From: Anaerolineae bacterium
GTDB lineage: Bacteria; Chloroflexota; Anaerolineae; JACIWR01
Reading direction: 5' to 3'
Length of the DNA stretch: 64,000 nucleotides
Assembly: GCA_024653325.1 (NCBI GenBank)
Contig: JANLFX010000005.1
Coordinates: forward strand, 1 to 64,000
Positions 4,016-23,164 of the stretch are shown in pieces. Both the position numbers and the translations under genes were made by a program. Below the pieces are notes generated by a model. That model had not been told where the DNA came from and ran no database searches. It worked only from the letters and a program-made list of their open reading frames with translations. Numbering within the stretch: the first letter of the stretch is position 1; the number at the start of each line of letters is the position of its first letter.

Positions 4016-4690
4016 CTAGCGCGAAAGCAAGTACAAGATGAGAGCCGAGGAAAGGGGAACGGTGATGTTGTCAATATGCCAGGGAGAAGAGGCTTCAACC
4101 AGGCTGGTGACCAGAGCCACGAGGAAAGCCTGCAGCAGGCTGGACAGCAGGCCCAATGGGGGGAAACAAAGCAGGGCTAGAAAGGTGGTCAACCAACTGA
4201 AGAGGAACATCGTCAGGGAACCTTCCATGGAACGGGTGGTGCCCCAGAAATGATATTTATACTGGCCAAAGCGGTGACCGAGGATAGCCGCCATGGCGTC
4301 GCCCCAGGTCATCGGCATGAGGGCGGCTACAATGAGACCAGGATAGCGGTCCGGCCTGGTCATCCAAAAGAGCACGATGACCAGTGCAAACGAGATGGGG
4401 AAATAAACCGTGCCCAGATTGCCCCGCTCGCCCGTCTCCATCGCCTTAAAAGTCTCCCGGCGATAGGAAATGTAGTTGATGATCACAAAGCTGATGGGCG
4501 GGATGATGGCGAAATACCAGTGTTCAAAAAGGAGCACCGTGCCGATGGACCACATGCCCACGGCGATGTGGATAAACTTGCGGGTAAAGTCAGTGGAATA
4601 GTTTCGCCATCTGCGCAGGCCCTCGCCAGCGAAGATGGCGGCAAATACGTACACGTAGGAAATGGCTAAAGCCAGCCAGTCCGATTTCAT
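4016..4690 (-). CDS. CTP-dependent polyprenol/dolichol-kinase-like membrane protein (DUF92/CdsA superfamily)
   Basis: Polytopic membrane protein with C-terminal 'WGDAMAAILGHRFG' motif, which resembles the CTP-binding motif of Sec59/VTE5/CdsA-type enzymes. Confidence 0.45.
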   Translation of the reverse strand: MKSDWLALAISYVYVFAAIFAGEGLRRWRNYSTDFTRKFIHIAVGMWSIGTVLLFEHWYFAIIPPISFVIINYISYRRETFKAMETGERGNLGTVYFPISFALVIVLFWMTRPDRYPGLIVAALMPMTWGDAMAAILGHRFGQYKYHFWGTTRSMEGSLTMFLFSWLTTFLALLCFPPLGLLSSLLQAFLVALVTSLVEASSPWHIDNITVPLSSALILYLLSR

Positions 4691-4702
4691 CTCCTCACCC
4701 CC

Positions 4703-4750
4703 TCAGGTGACAGTCAATTGACAGTCACCTTTGAGGTGACTGTCACCTGA
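4703..4750. repeat. REP-like palindrome family A (AGGTGAC-N-GTCACCT units)
   Basis: Sequence 'tcaggtgacagtcaattgacagtcacctttgaggtgactgtcacctga' lies between psuG's 3' end and the membrane gene. Related copies at 23177, 24105 and 44685. Confidence 0.5.
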
Positions 4751-4755
4751 CCTAA

Positions 4756-5679
4756 TTAGGCGGCCAGCGCCCCGGCGATACGGGCAGCAATGGCCGCGTT
4801 GTTTTCCAAAAGGGCCACGTTGGCCTGCAGGCTGTCTCCCCCGGTAATTTCCGCGATGCGGGCCAGGAGGAACGGGGTGATGGCTTTACCCCGGATGCCC
4901 TGCTCTTCGGCGGCGGCCAGGGCCTGAGCGATGGCCATTTCCATCACCTCAGCGGGGAGCTCGGCCTCGGCGGGCACGGGGGCGACGATCAGCACCCCGC
5001 CACCCAGTCCCAGGTCCCAGCGGGCGCGGATAATCTCCGCTGCTGCCTGCGGGCTGTCTACCCGCGCGTCCACCGGCAGGCCGCTGGAGCGGGTATAAAA
5101 GGCCGGGAATTCATCGGTGCCGTAGCCGAGCACCGGCACACCCCAGGTCTCCAGCCACTCCAGGGTAAGCGGCAGGTCGAGGATGGATTTAGCCCCGGCG
5201 CAGACCACGGCCACCGGCGTGCGGGCCAGTTCCGGCAAATCGGCGGACACGTCGAAGGGCTGACCGCGATGGACCCCGCCGATGCCCCCGGTGGCGAAAA
5301 CTTTGATCCCCGCCTGAGCCGCGATCCACATCGTCGCTGCGACAGTCGTCGCCCCGTCGCCACCCTGGGCAACGACGATGGGCAGGTCGCGGCGGCTGAC
5401 CTTGCGGATATTTCCTCCTCGGGCCAGGCGTTCCAGCCCAGCATTATCCAGTCCTATCCTCAGCCGCCCGCCGAGCACAGCGATGGTCGCCGGGGTGGCT
5501 CCCTCGGCGCGGATCACCTCCTCCAGCCGGTGCGCGGTCTCCAGATTGGTGGGAAAGGGCAGGCCGTGGGCGATAAGGGTGGATTCCAGGGCAACCACGG
5601 GCCGGCCGGCTTTCAGGGCTTCCTCGACCTCTGCTTTCAGGACGAGCCAATCTTGCGCGGGCTTTTTGAGGAGTGTCAT
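4756..5679 (-). CDS. psuG: Pseudouridine-5'-phosphate glycosidase
   Basis: 'PVVALESTLIAHGLPFPTNLETA...VLGG' and the rest match the PsuG/IndA family. The ORF-track N-terminal extension to 5775 is unlikely; the internal Met abuts the upstream gene's stop. Confidence 0.75.
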   Translation of the reverse strand: MTLLKKPAQDWLVLKAEVEEALKAGRPVVALESTLIAHGLPFPTNLETAHRLEEVIRAEGATPATIAVLGGRLRIGLDNAGLERLARGGNIRKVSRRDLPIVVAQGGDGATTVAATMWIAAQAGIKVFATGGIGGVHRGQPFDVSADLPELARTPVAVVCAGAKSILDLPLTLEWLETWGVPVLGYGTDEFPAFYTRSSGLPVDARVDSPQAAAEIIRARWDLGLGGGVLIVAPVPAEAELPAEVMEMAIAQALAAAEEQGIRGKAITPFLLARIAEITGGDSLQANVALLENNAAIAARIAGALAA

Positions 5680-6878
5680 TAGCCCTCCACTTTTTGTAGC
5701 GCCGTCTCTTTGGGCGGTTTGACCTCGGTCAGCTTGGGCAACCCTTCTTCCCTTATCGAGAGGATATTTCCCCATTCATCGGCCACTACCTTCCACTTGC
5801 GCTCCTCGCGGACAGTGATGGTGTTTTTTCCATCCCCGGTCGGTTTGTATTCGGGATCACCGTAGTGGGCAAATAGAATTACCACACCGCTGGTCGGTCT
5901 GCGTTCCATCTCCAGCAAGCGTAACGGGGTTTTATCGCCCAGCTTGCGCTGCGCCGACTTGGTGATGACCCGCACCAGGCGGTCTTCGTGGGCGAAGACA
6001 GGTTCTGGCAACTGCATTGTGCCGTCCAGGTATGCTGCGTATTGTTGCGCGGCCCCCAAAGCAAAGGCAAGGGAAAAGAAGATAAATATGCCGCTGTACA
6101 TCAGGGAATTCAGCAGCCGGCTGTACCCTTCGTCTTTGTACGTGGCGATGAACACCAAAGCCAGCGCCAATGCGGCCACCAGGGCTGCGATCATGATCAA
6201 AATCGGAGAGGGTCGGAGACCTTTCTTCACCCGCCGGCCCCACGAGTAATCGCGTAACTTGCCTTTCAACGAATAAGAGAAAAACACTATCAGGCAGGAC
6301 AGGAAAACGGCTAAGACTGTGCTCACGCCGATGGAGATGTACGGGCCCAGGCTCCGGCGCGCGAACGGGGAGACCAGCGGGGCCAGGGCGAAAATGAGGG
6401 CCAGGACACCCGGAAAATTCAGGAAAAAACGCCGCAACCGGTCTCCACCGCCCTGGGCGGACAGAGCTCGCGCTCCGCTGTTATCCGCTCCGCAGAAGGG
6501 GCAGATGTTTTCTTTGTGGTAGGCGATTGTCCCCCCCGCCTTGCACACCGGACAGCGCGCGTTATCCAGGTTCCAATCGGCCCGTTCTGCCCCGCAGCGT
6601 GGGCAGATGCCCGATTTGATGAAATGGTCAGTGTTATCCGCCCCGCACTTCCGACAGAGCAGCCGCCCATCGGGCAGTTCCTGGTAGCTGATCACGGCCT
6701 CGGCTTTGCAGCCAGGTTGGGGACAGCGGGCCTTGAGCGCATTCTCCGGCTTGAGGTCCGCGCCACAGCGGGGGCACCGGTTGTGTTGGGCAAACCAGGC
6801 AGTGTTGTCGGTGCCGCAGTGGCGGCAATAGAAATGACCGGTCAGGTATTCCCGTTTGCAGGAAAGACAGGTGGGCAT
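5679..6878 (-). CDS. Membrane protein with four N-terminal double zinc-ribbon repeats and a C-terminal soluble domain
   Basis: Repeated C-x2-C...C-x2-C pairs ('CLSCK..CRHCG', 'CPRCG..CPQPGC', 'CRKCG..CPRCG', 'CPVCK..CPFCG') are followed by about 4 TM helices and a roughly 110 aa C-terminal domain. Lies directly downstream of an SPFH gene. Confidence 0.5.
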   Translation of the reverse strand: MPTCLSCKREYLTGHFYCRHCGTDNTAWFAQHNRCPRCGADLKPENALKARCPQPGCKAEAVISYQELPDGRLLCRKCGADNTDHFIKSGICPRCGAERADWNLDNARCPVCKAGGTIAYHKENICPFCGADNSGARALSAQGGGDRLRRFFLNFPGVLALIFALAPLVSPFARRSLGPYISIGVSTVLAVFLSCLIVFFSYSLKGKLRDYSWGRRVKKGLRPSPILIMIAALVAALALALVFIATYKDEGYSRLLNSLMYSGIFIFFSLAFALGAAQQYAAYLDGTMQLPEPVFAHEDRLVRVITKSAQRKLGDKTPLRLLEMERRPTSGVVILFAHYGDPEYKPTGDGKNTITVREERKWKVVADEWGNILSIREEGLPKLTEVKPPKETALQKVEG

Positions 6879-6946
6879 GGGTTGTTACCTCCGTGTGGCG
6901 GCGCTAAAGGGTACACTTTGGTCAGACGGCGGGCTGGAAGCCCGCT

Positions 6947-8530
6947 TTACTCTGATTTTTCCATGTGTTCCGTGATGTCGCGCAATTCCCCAGGGCCAAG
7001 CAAACCCTCTTTGCCCTCGCTGATGAACAGGGCTTTGGCCCCGGCACTCTTGGCCATTGCTTCCAGCGCCTCAATATAGCGGGTGGCGATCACATCATCG
7101 GCGACAACGTTGCGCGAGAGTTGCTCGAATGCGCGGATGAAACGAATACTCACCCCGTCGGGCATGCCGGTGAGTATGTTGACCATCCGCTCTATTTGAT
7201 CCACCATTTCCGCACTGGCTTTGCTCCTGATTCTCTCCAGTGCTCTGATAACTCGGACCCTGCTTTCACCTTCCGCCTCAGCTTCCTCCAACTTGATCTT
7301 GGTCTTCCATTCCGTCTCCCACACCGCCAGCATCTGCTGGCGGACCTCGTCGGGCATCTGGATCATCCGCAGGTCCACGCCCCCATATTTGACCCCCCAG
7401 TTGAGGCAGAGTTTCTCCAGGACCTCGTTGGCCCGTTTTTCAATTTGCTCGATAGTGCGCTGATTGGTCGGGAAAAAACCTTCCGGCGTGGGCGTGCCGG
7501 ACAAATCAAAAATCTGGTCGAGATCATAAGTGAGGATAATGTCGCGGATAATGGACTCGGAAGCGCCGGGGACGGTGCCCTGCCAGCCGAACTCGGTCAC
7601 GTTATACACCGCTTTGCGGATGGTGGCCTCGTAAACCGGATAGGGGTCCTTGCTGATCAGGGGAGAGAGGGCTTCGCCGTCGGGGGGGATGTGGCTTTCG
7701 GGGCGGGCATCCACGTCCTTTTTCGATTCGATCTGGAAGCTGACCCCCAGGGCCAGTTTCAGCGGCACCCGGTCACGGGTAAGGACGTTTTCCGCCTCGC
7801 GCAGCACCCACTGCGGTCGCAGGTCCACAATGGCTTTGAGCACCTCCGCGCGTTTGGTGATGACCACCCCCGGCCCAGCGATACGGCTGATTGTGCCCCC
7901 GCGCTCGAAAACCACGGCGTTTCCAGGGCGGATGATCACCTTGCCGGGCCCTCCCAGGAATTTCATCAGCCCTCCCACTTTCCCTTTGAGTTCCTTTCCG
8001 TCCACGATGGTAGCGGTGAGGTAATTTGAGGCGAAAATCAGGCTGAAAAGCAGGCGCAGGGCTTCACCTCTGCTGATTTTGAAAGGTTCCTGGTGCAATC
8101 CCAGGATATACTCAGAACTGACCCACATCACGGTCAGGAGAGGGAGGCCGAAAATAGCAATGGCCGCCGGGAAGGCCACGAGAAAAAAGCCCACGATCCA
8201 TTGCAAGGTGCCCTCGGTGATTTCGTCACCGAATTTTTGGTTGATGAGGTCTTTGACCGGCAGACTCAGCACCAGGGCCAGGCCGAGGATCAGAGAGATG
8301 GCAAACATGATGCGCTGGGCCTTTTCATTGGGGAAGGACCAGCCCAGGAAAATCAAGCTAAGCGCCAGGATAGGTGTACCCACCCAGCGGTTGTTGATGA
8401 TCATGCCGATGATGGTCAGTATCAGGCAGATGAGGGCTTTGAGAAAGAAAACCCGCGTCTTGGATACCTTTTCCTCTTTCGGCCCCTCCAGGCTCTCGAT
8501 TTCGTATGTCATCGCCAGCCTCCTCCACAC
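6947..8530 (-). CDS. SPFH/band-7 (stomatin/flotillin-like) membrane protein with long C-terminal coiled-coil region
   Basis: N-terminal TM helices, then core 'KVIIRPGNAVVFERGGTISRIAGPGVV...LTRDRVPLKLALGVSFQI', which matches the SPFH domain. Confidence 0.55.
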   Translation of the reverse strand: MWRRLAMTYEIESLEGPKEEKVSKTRVFFLKALICLILTIIGMIINNRWVGTPILALSLIFLGWSFPNEKAQRIMFAISLILGLALVLSLPVKDLINQKFGDEITEGTLQWIVGFFLVAFPAAIAIFGLPLLTVMWVSSEYILGLHQEPFKISRGEALRLLFSLIFASNYLTATIVDGKELKGKVGGLMKFLGGPGKVIIRPGNAVVFERGGTISRIAGPGVVITKRAEVLKAIVDLRPQWVLREAENVLTRDRVPLKLALGVSFQIESKKDVDARPESHIPPDGEALSPLISKDPYPVYEATIRKAVYNVTEFGWQGTVPGASESIIRDIILTYDLDQIFDLSGTPTPEGFFPTNQRTIEQIEKRANEVLEKLCLNWGVKYGGVDLRMIQMPDEVRQQMLAVWETEWKTKIKLEEAEAEGESRVRVIRALERIRSKASAEMVDQIERMVNILTGMPDGVSIRFIRAFEQLSRNVVADDVIATRYIEALEAMAKSAGAKALFISEGKEGLLGPGELRDITEHMEKSE

Positions 8531-8589
8531 TGTGCCGTGTGCGCCAAATCGTGTCTATACTATACCATAAATTGGTCTAAAAGGGAAGT

Positions 8590-8612
8590 GGGTCGGGTTG
8601 TCAACCCGACCC
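8590..8612. terminator. Perfect 11-bp-stem hairpin (gggtcgggttg t caacccgaccc), probable intrinsic terminator for the DUF2007 gene
   Basis: Perfect inverted repeat followed on the minus strand by a T-rich tract. Lies between convergent or serial genes. Confidence 0.4.
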
Positions 8613-8667
8613 ACGTGCCCCTTGGTTGTTTCGGACTGAGCACTCAGGGAAAACACTGACCATTGAG

Positions 8668-8967
8668 TCATTGTTCATTAGTCATTGACTCGTTGAAGCC
8701 TTCCGTGGCCTCGTCTTCCCACCCTTCCTCCGGCTCAGCGGCCAGCACCGCCTGGGCGTCTTCGGCCAACGCCTCGGGCACCATGACCCGCACCTCGCCC
8801 AGGCCGTCCACGGTGATGCCCAACACCGGGCCGGCGCTTTCGTAATCCAACAGGGCCGGTATGCCGGCACTTTCCAGTTTGCTTTTGATTAGCTCGGCCT
8901 GTAACAGCCCCTGAGTAGTGTATACTGTGGTCAGACCCGGGCGGTGAATTTTTCTGTGAAACAACAT
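8668..8967 (-). CDS. DUF2007-like small protein (putative signal-transducing, PII-like fold)
   Basis: 99 aa with an acidic C-terminus. Pattern 'TVYTTQGLLQAELIKSKLESAGIP' resembles the DUF2007 family. Confidence 0.4.
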   Translation of the reverse strand: MLFHRKIHRPGLTTVYTTQGLLQAELIKSKLESAGIPALLDYESAGPVLGITVDGLGEVRVMVPEALAEDAQAVLAAEPEEGWEDEATEGFNESMTNEQ

Positions 8968-9010: not shown

Positions 9011-9502
9011 TTAGGTACTCGTTTCAGTAACGTCGGCCACCTGCCCTCCGGTCACCTGTACCAGCATTTCGTAGCTGATGGGAAACAGGGCATTAGGCGC
9101 GCCAGCCGCAGCGTACAGGGTCTGAAAGCGATGCAGGCTGTCATCAATAATGGTACGCAGGGGTGGCTCGTGGCCCACTGGCGGCACCCCACCGATGGCA
9201 AATCCGGTCTTCTGGCGTACGGTGTCCGCGTCGGCGATCATCACCCGCCTGGCGCCGAGCAACGATTTGAGTTTGCCCGGGCTGGCCCGCCGGTCGCCGG
9301 CAACGAGGACCAGGATGGGTTGGTCGTCGGCCAGAAAGATGAGCGATTTGACGATGCTGCCCAGGGGCGCGTGCATGGCCTCTGCCGCTAACTGGGCAGT
9401 ACGGGTGCTCTCGCCCGCCAATTGCAGAACCTCGATGCCCAAACCTTTGTCTTTCAGGAAACGTCGCACTCGATCCACGGAACTCATTGGCGCATCCTCC
9501 AA
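9011..9502 (-). CDS. ybaK: YbaK/ProX-type aminoacyl-tRNA deacylase (Cys/Pro-tRNA editing)
   Basis: 'VKSLIFLADDQPILVLVAGDRRASPGKLKSLLG...GFAIGGVPPVGH' is the YbaK/EbsC family signature. Confidence 0.7.
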   Translation of the reverse strand: MEDAPMSSVDRVRRFLKDKGLGIEVLQLAGESTRTAQLAAEAMHAPLGSIVKSLIFLADDQPILVLVAGDRRASPGKLKSLLGARRVMIADADTVRQKTGFAIGGVPPVGHEPPLRTIIDDSLHRFQTLYAAAGAPNALFPISYEMLVQVTGGQVADVTETST

Positions 9503-11121
9503 CGGAAGAATTTGATCAGCTTCTCGCGCAACTCGTCGCTGCTGGCGTATTCAATGTACTCCATCCCCGCCAGATCGGTGGGCACTTGACTGCGTTTGTC
9601 CTTGACGATCACCGTCTCTTTACTCAGACCATAGGCCAGACCCAGCTCGAACAACACATTGGGATTCCAGTCCGAGATGTTGATCACGGCGTAGCGCGAG
9701 CTTTGAATGCCCTCGCACACTTTGCACATCACATCAATGTTGCTGATGGCGTCCGACGCTCGCCAGGGGTACAGGCCCACAGCTTCCAATGCCGGAATGA
9801 CTCCATACTTGTATGCATCGGCAAATTCGGGGCGGAAAGGCATGCCGATAAACACCTGATTCGGATCGAGCACGGGGTTCTTGGGACAGGTCGGGCTACC
9901 GGTTTTGAAGCAACGCATCTCCTCCTCCAGTACCAGCTCTCCGCTGGTGATAGGCGGCATTTCCAGGATCGGGGTTTCAAATCCGGTTGTTTCGGTGGGA
10001 TGAATCCAATGGCGGATGGCGCTCATCACCCCACGGCGCTCGGATTTCGGTTCGGTAGTCAATCTCAAGTAGGGTTCCAACACCTGGGCGTAGATGGGAT
10101 TGCGCACCTGGCAGTAGGTGTCCTCGCGGATGACGCCGATCATCTCAAGCTGGGAGATGATGGGATTGTTACGGCTGAAACGTACCTGGCGTCCCTGTTG
10201 GACGATTTCGCGCAGCAGGCTTTTAGCGTCCAGGTCCAGTTCCAGTTGGCGGATGATGTGGCTGAGGTTATCATCCCCCTGGAGCATCAATTCCACGGCA
10301 TCATCCACGTGGGCCGGAGTGAGTACCGGCAACGACTGGCGCTCCAGGATGACGCAGATACGTTGGGTCAGGTAAGGATGCCCTCTGGCCTGCTCGTAGA
10401 TGCGGTCAGCAAATTTGTCCTGAATCCTTGCTCCGGTATGCTCGAAGTTGCTCACCAGGCGGAACACGTCCTCGCGGCTGAAATCCTTGAGGTATATTTT
10501 TTCGCAGATGTTAAGCGGGGAGTTCAGCCCGAAGGTCAGCAGGTACAAGTCCACTGCCCCGCAGAACAGGAACAGGTATTTACGGAAAATCGGTTCGGTG
10601 CCTTTAGCGCTGTTGAACACCGCGCGGATAGTGTTAAAGAAGCTGTCTGACACCTCCGGAAGCAAAGCTCCCACCTCGTCCAGCATGACTATGATGCGCG
10701 GCGAGGGTGTGCGTTCGGCACTATCGCGCAGGAAGTGCAAGAAGTCCACCGGCCCTTTGATGATGGGACGCTCTTCAGGCCAACCTTCTCCTCCCCGACT
10801 GCGCAGCGCGTTGTGAATCTGCGTGCTGACATAGCCGTAACAGGCGGCCTCATCCTGGTTGCGCAGCACCGAAAGGTCAATGAGCACCACCGCAAAGTCG
10901 GCAGCCAGTAACTCAGCACGGGCATGGTAAAGCAATGTGGTTTTACCCGTCTGACGCGAGCTGAGGAGGGCGATGTAGTTAGAGATGGTGGTCTGGGTGG
11001 ACAGGCGTATGATCTCCCGCAGTTCTTCGCGTTCAACGGTAATCGCCCGGTCTCGTTCCGGGTCCAGAGGTCCCCGGGCTTTGAATACCCAATCTACTGT
11101 CAAGTCCCCCCCAATGCTCAC
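9484..11121 (-). CDS. P-loop NTPase (Orc1/Cdc6-like 'archaeal ATPase' fold) with C-terminal TIR/nucleoside-2-deoxyribosyltransferase-like (SLOG) domain
   Basis: Walker A 'SSRQTGKTTLL', Walker B 'IIVMLDEVGAL', sensor-like 'GHPYLTQ'. C-terminal ~145 aa 'QVFIGMPF...YAVINISDWNPNVLFELGLAYGL' has the TIR/NDT-type beta1 and catalytic-Glu motifs. GTG start with an AGGAG RBS, 1 nt after the upstream gene's stop. Confidence 0.6.
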   Translation of the reverse strand: MSIGGDLTVDWVFKARGPLDPERDRAITVEREELREIIRLSTQTTISNYIALLSSRQTGKTTLLYHARAELLAADFAVVLIDLSVLRNQDEAACYGYVSTQIHNALRSRGGEGWPEERPIIKGPVDFLHFLRDSAERTPSPRIIVMLDEVGALLPEVSDSFFNTIRAVFNSAKGTEPIFRKYLFLFCGAVDLYLLTFGLNSPLNICEKIYLKDFSREDVFRLVSNFEHTGARIQDKFADRIYEQARGHPYLTQRICVILERQSLPVLTPAHVDDAVELMLQGDDNLSHIIRQLELDLDAKSLLREIVQQGRQVRFSRNNPIISQLEMIGVIREDTYCQVRNPIYAQVLEPYLRLTTEPKSERRGVMSAIRHWIHPTETTGFETPILEMPPITSGELVLEEEMRCFKTGSPTCPKNPVLDPNQVFIGMPFRPEFADAYKYGVIPALEAVGLYPWRASDAISNIDVMCKVCEGIQSSRYAVINISDWNPNVLFELGLAYGLSKETVIVKDKRSQVPTDLAGMEYIEYASSDELREKLIKFFRWRMRQ

Positions 11122-11122
11122 A

Positions 11123-13156
11123 CTAAAGCTTTCTCCTCAGGCTATCCACCAGGGTCGGCATGTCCTGGCTGGCTTTGATAACCTGCGGGAATCCCTGGTT
11201 AGCGAACTCATAATACTGCCCATTCTTGCGAATGATGGAGTAAAGCACCAGGTCACGGATTGCTTCTTCCAGGTCTGCCTGAGGGACAGCGACTTCGGCC
11301 CTGGTGAGGAAAGTCTCGATGTCCGCCAGGGTGGAGGGCCCCTGGTCAATCATTAGCAGGGAGACGATTTTCTCCAGAGCCGTGGCGTTGCCCCAGGTGA
11401 CCTCGGTAAAGTACTCGCTGAATTGGCTGGAATTGCGCACCGCCTCCAGGTCGGCCATGGTGATCCGCCGCGCTCCCCGCCGATTGATCTGGATGATGAG
11501 CCTCTGGCAGATGTATTGCACGATGTTGGGATGGCAGGAGGAAAGGTCCATGATCTCCCGCACCAACGCTTCCTGGTCCTCCAGCATGATGCCCATAGCC
11601 TGCATGGGTTCCAGGATAATGCGACGGGCGGATTGTTCATCCAGGTAGCTGAGATGAATGGTGTCGCAGAAGTTGAACAAAGGTGAATCGGGAGCGTGCA
11701 GGCGGGTGTACAATATACGTTCGCCGCAGAAGACAAAACGACAGTACTGCTCCTGTGAGAGAGCACGGAACACGCGGAACAGTTTCTCCTGGGATAGCAG
11801 GTCGTAACTCAACAGGGCATCTATTTCGTCAAGGAGGATGATCACTGTCCCCCTGGCCCAATCGTTGTTCAGTTGGGTGATCAGGCGGCGGAATCCATCG
11901 GGCGAAAAGCTGGGCAATTCGACCTCCCACATGGATTGTACCGCCTCAAAGAAACCGTCATAGTCGGTCACGGCTTGGCAGTCCAGGTACAGGGGAAAGA
12001 AATCAGGGGTTTCGCTCAGCAGGCGGTAAACCTTGGCCAGGATGGAGGTCTTGCCGATTTTGCGCCCTCCGATGAGGGCGAAGCTGCAGTCTTTCACCTT
12101 GCGGGTTACGGTTTTCAGTTCGTTGTCGCGGCCAAAAAACATGTTTTCTGGGACAGGCCCCGAGGTCACGTATGGCGAGACGGCGTTCAGGTCTACCTGG
12201 CTCAGGATAATCTGAATCAGGCGTTGTTCGGGATCGCGGGCCATGATGATCTGCCGCAGGTCACTGCCGTCCAGCACGATTAAATCGTGGATCGCGCCGC
12301 GCACCAGGTATTTCAGGTTCTTACGTTTATCCAGTTGGGAGGGCCAGTCGTTCAGATCAATGAGCAGGGCGAAGTAGCTGGTCATGTTGAGGATGTTCAT
12401 CAGGCTGCGCACATCGCTGATGTCCTCGGGGCTGAACTCGCGCTTGCGCAGGAAGATGATGGGAAAACGAGGCGGGACACGCAGGCGCAGGGCGGGCGCT
12501 TTTACCACATAGCCGTGCAGGTCGCGATAAGTACGGGCATCCAGCATGGTGAAGCCCAGCATGTCACAAAGCAGGGAAGCCAGCATGGCGGCAATGGTCT
12601 GGAAAGTAGCCTCGCTTTCCACCGTCTCCCAGGCTGCTTTCCAGTTACGCAAGAAGGTTTTCATTCGTTTGGGGGAGGCCAGCTCGATGCGGGGCGGGTC
12701 CAGACGGAAAACCAGGTCGTCATCGGGGCGCTCTTCCACAAAGCGGCGCATCGCCTCGCTGCGTTCTTTGAGGGGAATATCCAGCAACATGTCTTCTTCC
12801 ACCCGGCCGTGTACCCACAGTGCCTGACGGATGGCGTTTTCCCAGGCTGCCCAGCGGGTTTCTTTGGAACTCCGCCATGAGGGGCTCTGTCGCCGCCGGC
12901 TCACAAGGATGATCAGGAGAAGTAAAATGGCGATAGAGACCAGGAGGAGAAGCGATACCGGCCAGGTAAGGAGGTCGGACAACGATGGGAAGAGAAACCC
13001 GTTTTCCAGTAGAAAACGGGTTTCCGAAATGAAAGCAGATGGCGCATCACTCTGTTGCCAGACGATGGTCTCTTGAGCGTGTAGTGGGATTGACCGGTGG
13101 GCCAGGGCTGATGCGACGTTAAGCGCCGCCGGTGCCAGGCAGGTTATCCCGGACAT
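11123..13156 (-). CDS. Membrane-anchored P-loop NTPase (STAND/Orc1-like), paralogous partner of the downstream ATPase
   Basis: N-terminal hydrophobic segment 'WPVSLLLLVSIAILLLLIILV', about 230 aa of unknown domain, then 'FFGRDNELKTV...IGGRKIGKTSIL' (Walker A) and 'VIILLDEIDALL' (Walker B), with a C-terminal winged-helix-like tail. Confidence 0.6.
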   Translation of the reverse strand: MSGITCLAPAALNVASALAHRSIPLHAQETIVWQQSDAPSAFISETRFLLENGFLFPSLSDLLTWPVSLLLLVSIAILLLLIILVSRRRQSPSWRSSKETRWAAWENAIRQALWVHGRVEEDMLLDIPLKERSEAMRRFVEERPDDDLVFRLDPPRIELASPKRMKTFLRNWKAAWETVESEATFQTIAAMLASLLCDMLGFTMLDARTYRDLHGYVVKAPALRLRVPPRFPIIFLRKREFSPEDISDVRSLMNILNMTSYFALLIDLNDWPSQLDKRKNLKYLVRGAIHDLIVLDGSDLRQIIMARDPEQRLIQIILSQVDLNAVSPYVTSGPVPENMFFGRDNELKTVTRKVKDCSFALIGGRKIGKTSILAKVYRLLSETPDFFPLYLDCQAVTDYDGFFEAVQSMWEVELPSFSPDGFRRLITQLNNDWARGTVIILLDEIDALLSYDLLSQEKLFRVFRALSQEQYCRFVFCGERILYTRLHAPDSPLFNFCDTIHLSYLDEQSARRIILEPMQAMGIMLEDQEALVREIMDLSSCHPNIVQYICQRLIIQINRRGARRITMADLEAVRNSSQFSEYFTEVTWGNATALEKIVSLLMIDQGPSTLADIETFLTRAEVAVPQADLEEAIRDLVLYSIIRKNGQYYEFANQGFPQVIKASQDMPTLVDSLRRKL

Positions 13157-13194
13157 GATTCATCCCCCCCAAGAAACAACGTGTTGCGATCATA

Positions 13195-13223
13195 ATTATA
13201 CAGAGAAAATCTCTTTATGTCAA
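13195..13223 (-). promoter_or_regulatory. Consensus sigma70-type promoter (TTGACA-N17-TATAAT) driving the two-ATPase operon
   Basis: Minus strand reads 'ttgacataaagagattttctctgtataat', about 35 nt upstream of the 13156 start codon. Confidence 0.5.
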
Positions 13224-13227
13224 AGAC

Positions 13228-13260
13228 AAGTGCGACGCACTTCTGGGATGCGTCGCACTT
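13228..13260. terminator. REP-like hairpin family B copy, likely terminator of the kinase gene
   Basis: 'aagtgcgacgca-cttctggga-tgcgtcgcactt' is a 12-bp perfect stem 17 nt after the kinase stop. Same core as the hairpins at 2640 and 57120. Confidence 0.5.
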
Positions 13261-13276
13261 ATCCCGTGACTTCAAA

Positions 13277-15454
13277 TCAATGGCACGATGGCGGTTCTGA
13301 CTCGCCGCCGGGTATGCTCCAACCGGCACCATTGGTTGCTGAGTTGCCATGCCCGTCCACCACGCGGATACGGAGGTCTATATAGCGCGCGCCGCAACGG
13401 GCGTGTATCTGGAACACCGTGCCCTGAGTAGAGCCCTCGTTCCAGTAAGTGGTATAATTTCCGTCCCCACCGGTCACCCGGACGTGGATGGTGGCTATCC
13501 AGTCTCCCGGGTAGTAGTCGGACTTTTGGGGCCGTTCCACGAATTCCCAGTACTGAATGGTGAGGGGTTCAAAGGTGGGCGCGGGTGTAGGTGTATCGGT
13601 CGCCGTCGGTGTGGGGGTCCTGGTTGGCGGGATGCGGGTATTGGTCGGTGTGGGGGTAGGTGTTGGCGTGTCCGTTGGGGTGGCGGTGGCAGTGGGCGTG
13701 TTGGTCGGCGTCGGTGTGTTCGTTGGCGTGGCTGTGTTCGTGGGGGTGGGGGTAATGGTCGGCGTCGGCGTGCGCGTCGCCCACACCAGGCCGCTTCCGG
13801 CAGCATTGGCGTTCCACTGCTCTTTTTCCTCGTCGGACATAGGTTGCGGGCCTTCCGGAGGTTGCCCCGGTATCAGCTCTAATTGTTGACCGGCCGCCAC
13901 TTCGATCTCCTGGCCCTCTGCGCTCACGTGGCCGGTCCCTTCGTCTACCGAAACCAGAGCCGAGCCATCGTTGGCCACAGCTACCCCGAAACGCCGGTCA
14001 CCCCACACTTTTGCCCCCGATTTGGTTTCCATGTACAACGCCGGGGTACCGGTTTCGGTCTCACTTTCGATTTCCTGCACCCAGACACGCCCGGTTTCCA
14101 GGATGAGGGCAATTTGGTTGTTGCCTTCCTCATCCTTCACTTGGTTTACGGTCAGGGTGCTGTTCGCTCCCACCCGCACTTTGCGCCCATCCAGCTCCAA
14201 TAGGGCTGTGGCTTCGTCACCGGTGCGCACTTGCCCGCCGGGATGGATTTTCATGCCCACGGCCGCTCCGCCCCAGGCGTCTTCGGCCCGCGAGCGGGCC
14301 TGGATGACTTCCTCGTTCATGAGGTCACTGACCACTATACTCATCTCTTGGGCCGTGGGAGTGCTGGGACGCAAGGTTGGCACGACTATCAAAGCCAGGG
14401 CGCCAAGAATGACCAGCAGGAGTATTACGCCACCAATGATGCCCCCGATAGCCAGAGGAGAGGTTCGTCGCGCTGCTGGAGCAGCCACCGGGGCATAAAC
14501 CGTTGCTCCGGCGGGTGGTGTCTCACCGATAACGGTGGCCCCCTCCTTTCCGGGAATTGGACCGACCACCGTGGTCGCCTCAGGCGGCAATGCCTCTATC
14601 ATACCCCGGCCTGCACAGGCATCAGCCAGGGCCTCAGCCATCTGAGTGGTGCTTTGGAAGCGATCCTCGGGACGCTTGGCCAGGGCTTTGAGGATGACCC
14701 GTTCCACGGCCTCTGGGATGTTGGGGTTGATGGCACTGGGTAGGGTAAGCGGGTCCTGCACGTGCTTGAAAATCACGGCCAGCGGGGTATCGGCACTGAA
14801 GGGGGTCTGACCGGTGAGCATTTCATACAAAACCACGCCCAGAGAGTAGATGTCACTGCGGTGGTCAATCTCCAGGCCCTGGCCTTGTTCTGGCGACATA
14901 TACTCAGGCGTGCCTACCACTCCGGTCATGGTGAAGCGAGTGCCCTCGACCATGCGCGCAATTCCGAAATCGGAGAGCACGGCCTCACCATCGGAGGTAA
15001 GAAGAATGTTGGCGGGCTTGACGTCACGGTGGACCATTCCCCGCTTATGGGCGTAATCCAAAGCGGAAGCGACAGCCTGAATAATCCGTTGCGTTTCTTC
15101 GAGGGACATGGTCTGACCGGCTTCTTTCAGTTCCCGTAGCCTGGCCTTGAGGGTCTGGCCGTCAATGAACTCCATGACCATGTAGTATATGTTGTTCTCG
15201 CTGCCGAAATCGTAGACCTGGACGATATGGCCGTGGCGCAATTTGGCCACTGACCGGGCCTCATGCTGGAAGCGGGCCAGGAATTGCTCATCCGTGGCGA
15301 CCATAGAATGCAGAATTTTGATTGCCACGTAGCGGTCCAGAGCGGGTTGATAGGCCTTATAGACTTCGGCCATGCCGCCTTTACCCAACTGAGCGACGAT
15401 GCGATATTGTCCTAGAGTTCTGCCGATCATGTCCATGTGTGCACCTCCATGCAT
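13277..15454 (-). CDS. Hanks-type Ser/Thr protein kinase with TM helix, FecR-like extracytoplasmic domain, Pro/Thr-rich linker and C-terminal beta-rich domain
   Basis: '[12 protein letters not shown]...VAIKIL', '[11 protein letters not shown]', 'DFGIA' and '[10 protein letters not shown]' place it in the Hanks kinase family. One TM helix; '[11 protein letters not shown]...LETGRVWV' is FecR-like. Confidence 0.8.
13560..13800. repeat. Low-complexity Pro/Thr-codon repeat (encodes the TPTPTNT... linker of the kinase)
   Basis: Direct repeats of ggtgt[a/g]gg[t/c]g on the plus strand; encodes (T-P-T-N/D/A)n. Confidence 0.6.
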
Positions 15455-19472: not shown

Positions 19473-19852
19473 AGTAAGTATCCAAAAACCGTGCGGTTGA
19501 CCTATGCCATTTCGTGTGTATTCATTTTAGCACACTTGGTCAGATATTTCAACCCTTTGCTCTGGGAGAGATGCATTTCACTTTGGGGGCGAGTTGCTGC
19601 TGTGCCCTGGCCGCGGAGACCTCTCCCAGCCCCCCAGAATATGGTAGGCGCGGTTTCTTACCGCGCAACCCCGGTCACGACAGTGGGCCTGCGCGGTGCT
19701 GGGGGCCGTCGGCCGCGCTATGGAAAGCGCTATCCCAACTTCGCTCAGGGCGCAGCCCTTCGCTGGGCTCAGGGCGCAGCAGCGGTCGGCCGCTACGGGA
19801 CAAACCTGCCCCGAAACTGAAACGCACCCCTATGGGAGAGTGCATTTCAGAA

Positions 19853-19884
19853 CGGGTAGCCGACGGCACTGCCATCGGCTGCCC
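19853..19884. repeat. REP-like palindrome family C (GGGTAGCCGACGGCA-n-TGCCGTCGGCTACCC type), preceded by 'gcatttca' box
   Basis: 'gggtagccgacggcactgccatcggctgcccc' carries G·U-compatible mismatches. Related copies at 26515 and 43122. Confidence 0.5.
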
Positions 19885-19960
19885 CGTCCCGTTTCTCACC
19901 ACTCTTGACAGCGGAGGACCATTGTGCTATATTGAGCGCATAAACTTCGAGGTGGTCTGG

Positions 19961-23164
<3,204 letters not shown>

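Follow-up and report, generated by a model that had tools for sequence, protein, structure and literature searches.

The locus described here lies in a 64,000-nucleotide stretch of an Anaerolineae bacterium genome (Chloroflexota; GCA_024653325.1, contig JANLFX010000005.1, positions 1-64,000 of the forward strand; hereafter the window). Two adjacent minus-strand genes in it encode paralogous P-loop ATPases, the first anchored in the membrane and the second ending in a domain of the TIR/nucleoside 2'-deoxyribosyltransferase (NDT) type. Our findings show that this pair is a real and previously undescribed two-ATPase module among the nucleoside triphosphatase (NTPase)-centred conflict and signalling systems. 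The pair and its parts are as follows.

13195..13223, minus strand: sigma-70-type promoter TTGACA-N17-TATAAT, matching the consensus at 12 of 12 positions
11123..13156, minus strand: gene 1, an open reading frame (ORF) of 677 aa with an extracytoplasmic N-terminus of ~64 aa, a transmembrane (TM) helix, a winged helix plus restriction-endonuclease (REase) fold, an ORC/Cdc6-like P-loop ATPase with lid, and a C-terminal winged helix
12902..12964, minus strand: gene 1 residues 65-85, forming the TM helix (19-residue hydropathy 3.42), with SRRRQ next
12152..12889, minus strand: gene 1 residues 90-335, winged helix plus PD-(D/E)xK REase fold
11119..11138, minus strand: gene 1/gene 2 junction, with a GAGGAG ribosome-binding site (RBS) at 11138-11133, TAG at 11125-11123, one base, and GTG at 11121-11119
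9484..11121, minus strand: gene 2, 545 aa, an AAA_35 ATPase (Pfam AAA_35 3.4e-16, residues 29-346) with a C-terminal TIR/NDT-like domain (PF10137 8.7e-6)
9487..9912, minus strand: TIR/NDT-fold effector domain, gene 2 residues 404-545, with beta1 VFIGMPF at 423-429, D463, Q473, a catalytic-type E492 in FELG, and C404/C412/C466/C469

A preliminary description of this DNA had called both ORFs, which are present, and had read their products as paralogous Orc1/Cdc6-like NTPases with intact Walker motifs. This reading is borne out. Walker A and Walker B are GGRKIGKTS (363-371) and LLDEID (441-446) in gene 1, SRQTGKT (55-61) and VMLDEV (145-150) in gene 2, and they are near-invariant in both ATPase families. 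Aligned with hhalign, the two ATPase modules match at 98.6% (E = 5e-16) over ~320 columns that extend through the lid and the C-terminal winged helix. The gene 1 ATPase matches Pfam AAA_22 (1.4e-9), with nSTAND1, TniB and ATPase_2 below threshold; nSTAND1 reaches 22.4 bits (cut-off 27.1) and nSTAND6 13.8 bits (cut-off 27.7), and relatives score similarly, below threshold. Among the Pfam models, no STAND family matches gene 2. The best solved relatives of the gene 1 family profile in the Protein Data Bank (PDB) are human Cdc6 (7e-8) and the 'archaeal ATPase' 2fna (1e-3), and PDB sequence searches with both full-length proteins, or with the A3 profile, gave no useful match. The likeness to Cdc6 is confined to the ATPase core, and membership among the Orc1/Cdc6 replication initiators was rejected (TIGR02928/PRK00411; 19.3 bits against a cut-off of 181.3).

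The N-terminal TM anchor claimed earlier for gene 1 is a single helix at residues 65-85, and since SRRRQ follows it directly, the C-terminal part of the protein is placed in the cytoplasm. In most Chloroflexota relatives of gene 1, a TM helix lies 5-32 aa ahead of the N-domain. A domain of about 230 aa that had been noted without a placement exists, and can now be placed as a winged helix followed by a restriction-endonuclease core fold that lacks the catalytic motif: column conservation across 44 sequences did not reveal the D...(D/E)xK triad of strands beta2 and beta3, the invariant residues being Arg, Pro and one Asp elsewhere than the triad. No Pfam nuclease family matches gene 1, and it differs from FokI/BspD6I-type PD-(D/E)xK nuclease domains in having no conserved catalytic D...(D/E)xK. 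Because this motif is not conserved, we predict for the module a non-catalytic role in binding or as an interface. It is rare, with 343 representatives among 1.84 billion clusters, and is always positioned just N-terminal to the ATPase. Residues 1-89 (window 12890-13156), which comprise the exposed segment and the TM helix, are the least conserved part of gene 1 among orthologues, with 37-40% identity or none detectable, as compared with 78-92% for the other parts; the exposed part may have been under relaxed constraint or under diversifying selection.

Gene 2 has no TM helix, and its orthologues are 83-87% identical. Its C-terminal domain, which contains VFIGMPF and NVLFELGLAYGL, had been assigned to the TIR/NDT type with a catalytic-type Glu, and this assignment has held, the Glu being conserved. 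PF10137, the family of the Cap12/PycTIR TIR domains, scores 26.2 bits against a cut-off of 24.7, the match covering only profile positions 76-118 of 119, and PF10137 is likewise among the precomputed Pfam assignments of P0001, an identical protein. The PADLOC models TIR-effector, PycTIR and PDC-S35 match the tail only weakly, over roughly its last 40-70 residues. The AlphaFold2 model of the domain is confident (pLDDT 89.6) and has the flavodoxin-like TIR/NDT fold; its best structural matches are nucleoside 2'-deoxyribosyltransferases, MilB, BcmB and Rcl/DNPH1. A profile search aligned E492 with the Glu of VFEFG in Cap12 and with E88 of the Chroococcidiopsis NDT. Relatives of the C-terminal 151 residues, 45-75% identical, are short proteins from unrelated lineages. 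D463, C466, K467, C469, Q473 and E492-L-G, plus C404 and C412, are invariant in TIR-like relatives, E492 in all 34 sequences compared, and no other part is as well conserved among orthologues as this domain (89-92%). Judged by conservation and model, the tail is a predicted TIR/NDT-type N-glycosidase fold with the key Glu, a fold that does not decide the substrate. Four near-invariant cysteines (C404, C412, C466, C469; CFKxG..C and MCKxC) are specific to its subfamily, which has more than 356 relatives in a metagenome scan, and may form a putative structural Zn site.

The pairing of the two ATPases is a family trait. Gene 1 has more than 130 homologues, chiefly in Chloroflexota; a scan with one genome per species gave 112 relatives, and 80 loci were examined, nearly all from Chloroflexota metagenome-assembled genomes (MAGs). 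An AAA_35 gene directly follows the gene 1 relative in 46 of the 65 loci with at least 1.5 kb of downstream sequence, its start lying between -64 and +207 nt from the gene 1 end. This adjacency, with stop and start codons that abut or overlap, persists in sequences that have diverged by ~60% and in MAGs with several phyla-level labels. The ATPase distance matrices of the two partners correlate (r = 0.95; Mantel 0/2000), a correlation to which shared species phylogeny contributes. The CHAT-AAA_35 relative P0065, which stands alone, was rejected as a pair member.

Both ends of the pair are modular. At 44 complete loci, the partner ends in two TM helices (18 loci), a PF10137 TIR-like domain (5), a class III cyclase (5), a Ser/Thr kinase (4), CHAT (3) or GAF-PP2C (3), and more rarely in TIR_2+EAD2 (1), an Rx4H HEPN-like domain (1), an unknown tail (1) or a short one (3). 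At the opposite end, the core Chloroflexota form of gene 1 starts with a signal or anchor, a Sortilin/BNR propeller of ~620 aa and a TM helix; elsewhere the N-terminus carries TPR or, according to the precomputed Pfam listing, caspase+PEGA, TatD or DUF1294. The window gene 1 is a short form. Relatives of gene 1 that lack the TM helix (L051-L053, L058, L063, L065, L070-L085) carry N-terminal Tubulin_2, which is FtsZ/tubulin-like, and have partners with a class III cyclase or Ser/Thr kinase tail; in L063, L065 and L072 a TatD DNase gene lies directly 5' of the Tubulin_2-type gene. Ser/Thr kinases recur: 8 loci have one 5' of gene 1, as does the window, and in 5 loci the partner is fused to one.

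Expression of the two genes is arranged as the preliminary description had it, with translational coupling under a promoter of their own. The junction reads GAGGAG-N7-TAG-T-GTG, the RBS lying 11 nt 5' of the gene 2 GTG, and in orthologues the same junction is a 4-nt overlap. The promoter hexamers and most of the spacer (TTGACATAAAG.GA.TTTCTCTGTATAAT) are kept in L001, L002 and L003, where the remaining intergenic sequence differs, as does the upstream gene in L001, so that they constitute a phylogenetic footprint. Conservation in the window and these three loci extends from the hexamers to the 17-nt spacer (TAAAG.GA.TTTCTCTG) and the GGGGGGAT ribosome-binding region, and may mark the binding site of a regulator. 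The pair and its promoter had been described as a two-gene unit; the unit in fact continues past 9484 through two further genes to a hairpin at 8614..8588. These genes and the bordering hairpins are listed here.

13224..13270, minus strand: strong hairpin 3' of the upstream Ser/Thr kinase gene, RNA fold dG -33.6 kcal/mol, z = -7.87, 0/200 shuffles equally stable
9011..9487, minus strand: gene 3, a 158 aa protein with a YbaK/ProX-type aminoacyl-tRNA editing domain (Pfam tRNA_edit 9.2e-28)
8668..8967, minus strand: gene 4, a DUF2007 protein of 99 aa with the annotation 'putative signal-transducing protein' (Pfam DUF2007 1.7e-9)
8588..8614, minus strand: intrinsic-terminator-like hairpin closing the four-gene unit, with a 12-bp stem of which 8 are GC pairs, then CUUCCCUUUUA; fold z = -3.9

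The hairpin before the promoter, which had also been noticed earlier, abuts the -35 box and is likely the terminator or insulator of the upstream unit; it is missing from a consensus terminator scan because its T-run is weak. At the other end of the pair, the ATG of gene 3 overlaps the TGA of gene 2 (ATGA), which couples the translation of these two genes. A YbaK-type gene also lies downstream of gene 2 in L001, L002, L003, L006 and L007, and the DUF2007 gene is conserved in L001, L002, L003 and L007. The TIR-like tail, YbaK and DUF2007 co-occur only in the five closest loci (75-91% identity), and we rejected YbaK and DUF2007 as core components, having found no support beyond these loci. Upstream of the pair, a separate FecR-domain gene lies between the kinase gene and gene 1 in L001, L002 and L006, together with an ABC transporter in L001; it is absent from the window (13157-13276), where the kinase shares homology with those FecR-domain proteins over its C-terminal part. 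Within the same kinase gene, window 13605-13764 contains five imperfect 25-nt direct repeats in a Pro/Thr-rich-coding region (TPTPT...).

How might the two ATPases work together? We propose, with moderate confidence, that the locus is a two-ATPase sensor-executor switch. Gene 1 would act as sensor and scaffold, a membrane-anchored ORC/Cdc6-like ATPase with N-terminal sensor domains that are interchangeable in relatives, and gene 2 as executor, a paralogous AAA_35 ATPase that would be made in step with gene 1 by translational coupling and whose C-terminal output is interchangeable. The output here would be an N-glycosidase of the TIR/NDT type, related to Cap12/PycTIR, in which a nucleophile-type Glu, E492, is conserved. 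We envision a scenario whereby gene 1 perceives a signal at the membrane, conceivably an envelope event or incoming nucleic acid, whereby this signal drives ATP-dependent hetero-oligomerisation of both paralogues, and whereby the hetero-oligomer clusters the TIR-like domains, which might then cleave NAD+ or a nucleotide and cause growth arrest or death. The outcome would be a response of the abortive-infection or programmed-death type in a filamentous bacterium. In this scenario we infer the physical interaction of the proteins, the trigger, the substrate and the biological role, whereas the layout, paralogy, coupling and conservation of the pair, its modular ends, and the fold with its conserved catalytic residue were observed; an anti-phage role in particular is unproven, and we hold it with less confidence than the sensor-executor core. 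The swapping of tails at a fixed position (TIR-like, TIR_2+EAD2, CHAT, HEPN-like, two-TM) is an effector-module signature and fits a conflict-type module. Consistently, oligomerisation switches on the NADase activity of PycTIR, which is of the PF10137 type and which in Pycsar systems alternates with a TM effector (PMC11224242), while EAD2 is a domain described from conflict systems (Kaur et al.; PMC8195603).

A number of observations weigh against such a switch. Many partner outputs are signalling enzymes (cyclase, kinase, PP2C), and the fold alone does not separate an NADase from a nucleotide N-glycosidase. The composition of the pair is native: overall and third-position GC content (GC and GC3) are 0.568 and 0.724 for gene 1 and 0.563 and 0.712 for gene 2, against 0.589 +/- 0.028 and 0.700 +/- 0.047 for the 50 ORFs called in the window, and codon usage, like GC, matches the core genome. 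Composition thus gives no sign of horizontal acquisition, which had been suggested earlier from a 'visibly lower GC'; GC-based transfer was rejected both at 1 kb and at the gene level. Except for gene 1 residues ~1-89, the orthologues evolve at the rate of their syntenic neighbours. Relatives were not found on viral contigs, plasmids hold only AAA_35 relatives of 25-29% identity, phages give only weak TIR-like matches, and no tRNA genes, Rfam matches or flanking repeats were found at the locus. Nor is there a defence-island context: the window neighbours are GalT-like, DZR (double zinc ribbon), SPFH, PlsC, LysM and GGDEF genes, and the flanking genes of 38 paired loci (+/-2 genes) are mostly housekeeping, plus kinases, FHA and STAS. 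PADLOC returned nothing beyond generic kinase matches on these 38 flanks and no system match in the window, where its PD-T4-6 matches on the upstream kinase are of the generic Hanks-kinase kind. Residence in a defence island, as known defence-gene enrichment, mobility and atypical composition, was not found.

Also speaking against a dedicated conflict module is the linkage to dnaE, which lies directly upstream of, and on the same strand as, 21 of 62 gene 1 relatives (L013, L030-L037, L039-L048, L057, L069; for example L035, with dnaE at 4341-7877 and the gene 1 relative from ~7844). Four of these loci are paired, with an AAA_35 two-TM partner downstream. With dnaE identities of 51-100% across linked loci, the arrangement is an old one, which suggests an ancient core-genome, possibly replication-linked, origin of the sensor ATPase. 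In the window dnaE is absent, an ORF of 1216 aa (19514..23164) having been rejected as a candidate, and the window's clade is without dnaE adjacency. The preliminary description had put the pair forward as a candidate undescribed defence system and had named observations that would speak against this, among them homologues in housekeeping contexts without association with defence islands, and GC and codon usage like the core genome. These two were made. The system is indeed undescribed; the defence context is unsupported, given the housekeeping flanks, the lack of any PADLOC system, and the position of about a third of the relatives 3' of dnaE. 'Defence system' is one of two live readings.

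Alternatively, the pair may be a non-immune signal-transduction or cell-cycle module of Chloroflexota, in which cues from the envelope or from outside the cell, possibly with a link to DNA replication, pass through a receptor-like ORC/Cdc6-type ATPase to a partner ATPase with a physiological output; its TIR/NDT-like tail would then make or destroy a nucleotide signal or metabolite without killing the cell. We take this as a serious though tentative possibility. The ancient linkage to dnaE, the housekeeping flanks, and the vertical inheritance with native composition all favour it, as do the extracytoplasmic propeller sensors, which are typical of receptors, the cyclase, Ser/Thr kinase and GAF-PP2C outputs, and the kinase, FHA and STAS genes that recur beside the pair. 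The winged helices of both ATPases and the REase fold of gene 1 would moreover be expected of DNA-associated ORC/Cdc6 relatives. However, tails of the CHAT, TIR_2+EAD2, HEPN-like and two-TM types are characteristic of death or conflict effectors, and the free exchange of unrelated outputs at one position is commoner in conflict systems than in dedicated regulators. Furthermore, the TIR-like subfamily is found inside type I restriction-modification (R-M) operons, and the window's clade has lost both dnaE adjacency and propeller and has a promoter of its own.

A composite of these ideas appears unlikely to us: a TM receptor-like ORC/Cdc6-type sensor that activates a paralogous executor may have arisen from an ancient dnaE-linked Anaerolineae core gene and have been re-armed here with a Zn-binding, four-Cys TIR/NDT N-glycosidase, whose target, considering the YbaK link, might be a nucleotide or aminoacyl-tRNA, not NAD+. 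Also improbable is the proposal that the TIR/NDT domain acts on nucleotides, nucleosides or aminoacyl-tRNA, not on NAD+, with the YbaK-type deacylase as its functional partner, for example an antidote, a repair factor or a protein that acts on the same RNA substrate. The structural matches to deoxyribosyltransferases, MilB, BcmB and Rcl/DNPH1 and the ATGA overlap with YbaK point in this direction. A YbaK-family tRNA_edit gene lies directly 3' of a TIR/NDT-like gene in two unrelated lineages, that of the window and that of distant stand-alone relatives (L117, L118, L119, L121, L126; e.g. L118:6459-6926), and genes of tRNA charging and of purine and deoxynucleoside metabolism neighbour other relatives, as detailed below. 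Against it, the YbaK gene beside the pair is confined to the five closest orthologues, for which lineage-specific synteny is possible; the second YbaK lineage amounts to one event among ~27 clusters, with a rough chance expectation of ~0.03, and is suggestive only; and the best match in Pfam and at the sequence level is the Cap12/PycTIR NADase family. That the two ATPases are independent and merely co-transcribed is very improbable, for although CHAT-AAA_35 relatives occur alone and 19 of 65 gene 1 relatives lack a downstream AAA_35 partner, the adjacency with its abutting or overlapping codons survives ~60% divergence in the other 46, the distance matrices correlate as closely as stated above, and the two are paralogous, as are the subunits of other hetero-oligomeric ORC/Cdc6-type assemblies.

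From a comparative perspective, the earlier statement that no named defence system matches is confirmed by PADLOC, NCBIfam and the literature. PADLOC and NCBIfam gave matches for both ATPase proteins at the level of the P-loop or the C-terminal motif only, a literature search for AAA_35/PF14516 found no relevant paper, and the pair is not described in Kaur 2020, Kaur 2021 or the 2026 STAND survey, the last of which mentions neither AAA_35 nor Chloroflexota. The tail of gene 2 shares PF10137 with Cap12 of CBASS and PycTIR of Pycsar; its activator module, however, is an AAA_35 ATPase, and the tail, with its four conserved Cys, is of a separate subfamily. Within +/-6 kb there is no CD-NTase or pyrimidine cyclase gene, and no CNBD, STING or SAVED sensor domain. 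Neither protein has a PADLOC match to ThsA or ThsB of Thoeris, the only nearby Ths-related match being a weak HIT-family one on the GalT-like gene. Because cyclase, cyclic-nucleotide sensor and ThsA are all lacking, the locus is not CBASS, Pycsar or Thoeris.

A likeness in logic links the pair to the two-gene nSTAND2 operon and other NTPase-centred conflict systems of multicellular bacteria (PMC7159879; PMC8195603), which share two adjacent genes with NTPase cores of the CDC6/ORC-STAND radiation, variable effectors (TIR, caspase/CHAT, kinase, EADs; EAD2 occurs in one partner of the present family) and a bias to filamentous or multicellular lineages including Chloroflexi. In contrast to the nSTAND2 operon, the ATPase families here are AAA_35 and AAA_22/ATPase_2-like, and neither protein matches nSTAND2 at E <= 1; AAA_35/PF14516 and this architecture are unmentioned in either paper. 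The pair further differs from these systems in its TM-anchored member with winged helix and REase fold, and in that much of its family is dnaE-linked, not mobile. With single-chain STAND/NLR-like anti-phage proteins such as Avs and bNACHT (PMC13581612), the pair would share an ATP-driven oligomerisation switch leading from a sensor to a death effector such as TIR. Unlike these, it divides sensor and effector between two paralogous ATPases, with the effector C-terminal instead of N-terminal and the sensor N-terminal and often extracytoplasmic.

Plant sensor/executor NLR pairs such as RRS1/RPS4 likewise consist of adjacent paralogous NTPases, one with variable sensor or integrated domains and the other with a TIR-type executing domain. 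The resemblance, which extends to co-evolution as a unit, is an analogy only and implies no common ancestry of the pairing: the ATPase clade differs, the bacterial genes are in tandem and translationally coupled, not head-to-head, and one member is membrane-anchored. Should the sensor-executor proposal be true, a split, membrane-tethered form would be added to the NTPase-driven immune and cell-death switches, and a filamentous phylum that has been little studied would have a bacterial equivalent of the sensor/helper receptor pairs. The natural swaps of sensor and output would provide a defined set for studying signal transfer from ORC/Cdc6-like ATPases to TIR-type enzymes, and the dnaE linkage leads one to ask whether a housekeeping ATPase associated with replication or the envelope was drafted into conflict or a conflict ATPase into housekeeping.

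The enzymes of the four-Cys TIR/NDT subfamily form an uncharacterised family of their own, with members inside type I R-M operons and beside purine and tRNA genes. Stand-alone members of ~200-260 aa lie between hsdS and hsdR of type I R-M operons (L137, L153, L154 and related loci), with hsdS at -1 in 8 loci (e.g. L153:1051-2319) and hsdR at +1 in 7 (e.g. L137:6436-9585). In the prr locus, PrrC occupies this slot. In 4 loci a tyrosine integrase lies two genes upstream of the R-M-inserted member. A TIR-like member fused to TPR (P0073, locus L091) is flanked by GluRS and an AlaX-type tRNA_SAD/DHHA1 gene, and a class I aminoacyl-tRNA synthetase lies two genes away from the solo Bathyarchaeia member (P0256, L088-L090), which DUF4145 and MazE genes adjoin. 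Adenosine deaminase, DeoC aldolase and GMP synthase (GuaA) stand beside stand-alone members in the L118:3756-8553 group, and adenylosuccinate synthetase in the L130:2217-3221 group; these purine and deoxynucleoside neighbours fit an NDT/DNPH1-like nucleotide role for some of the stand-alone members. Finally, large multi-GAF proteins of the histidine-kinase type (GAF x6 + HATPase_c) adjoin stand-alone TIR/NDT-like genes in 14 loci (L163 and 13 others).

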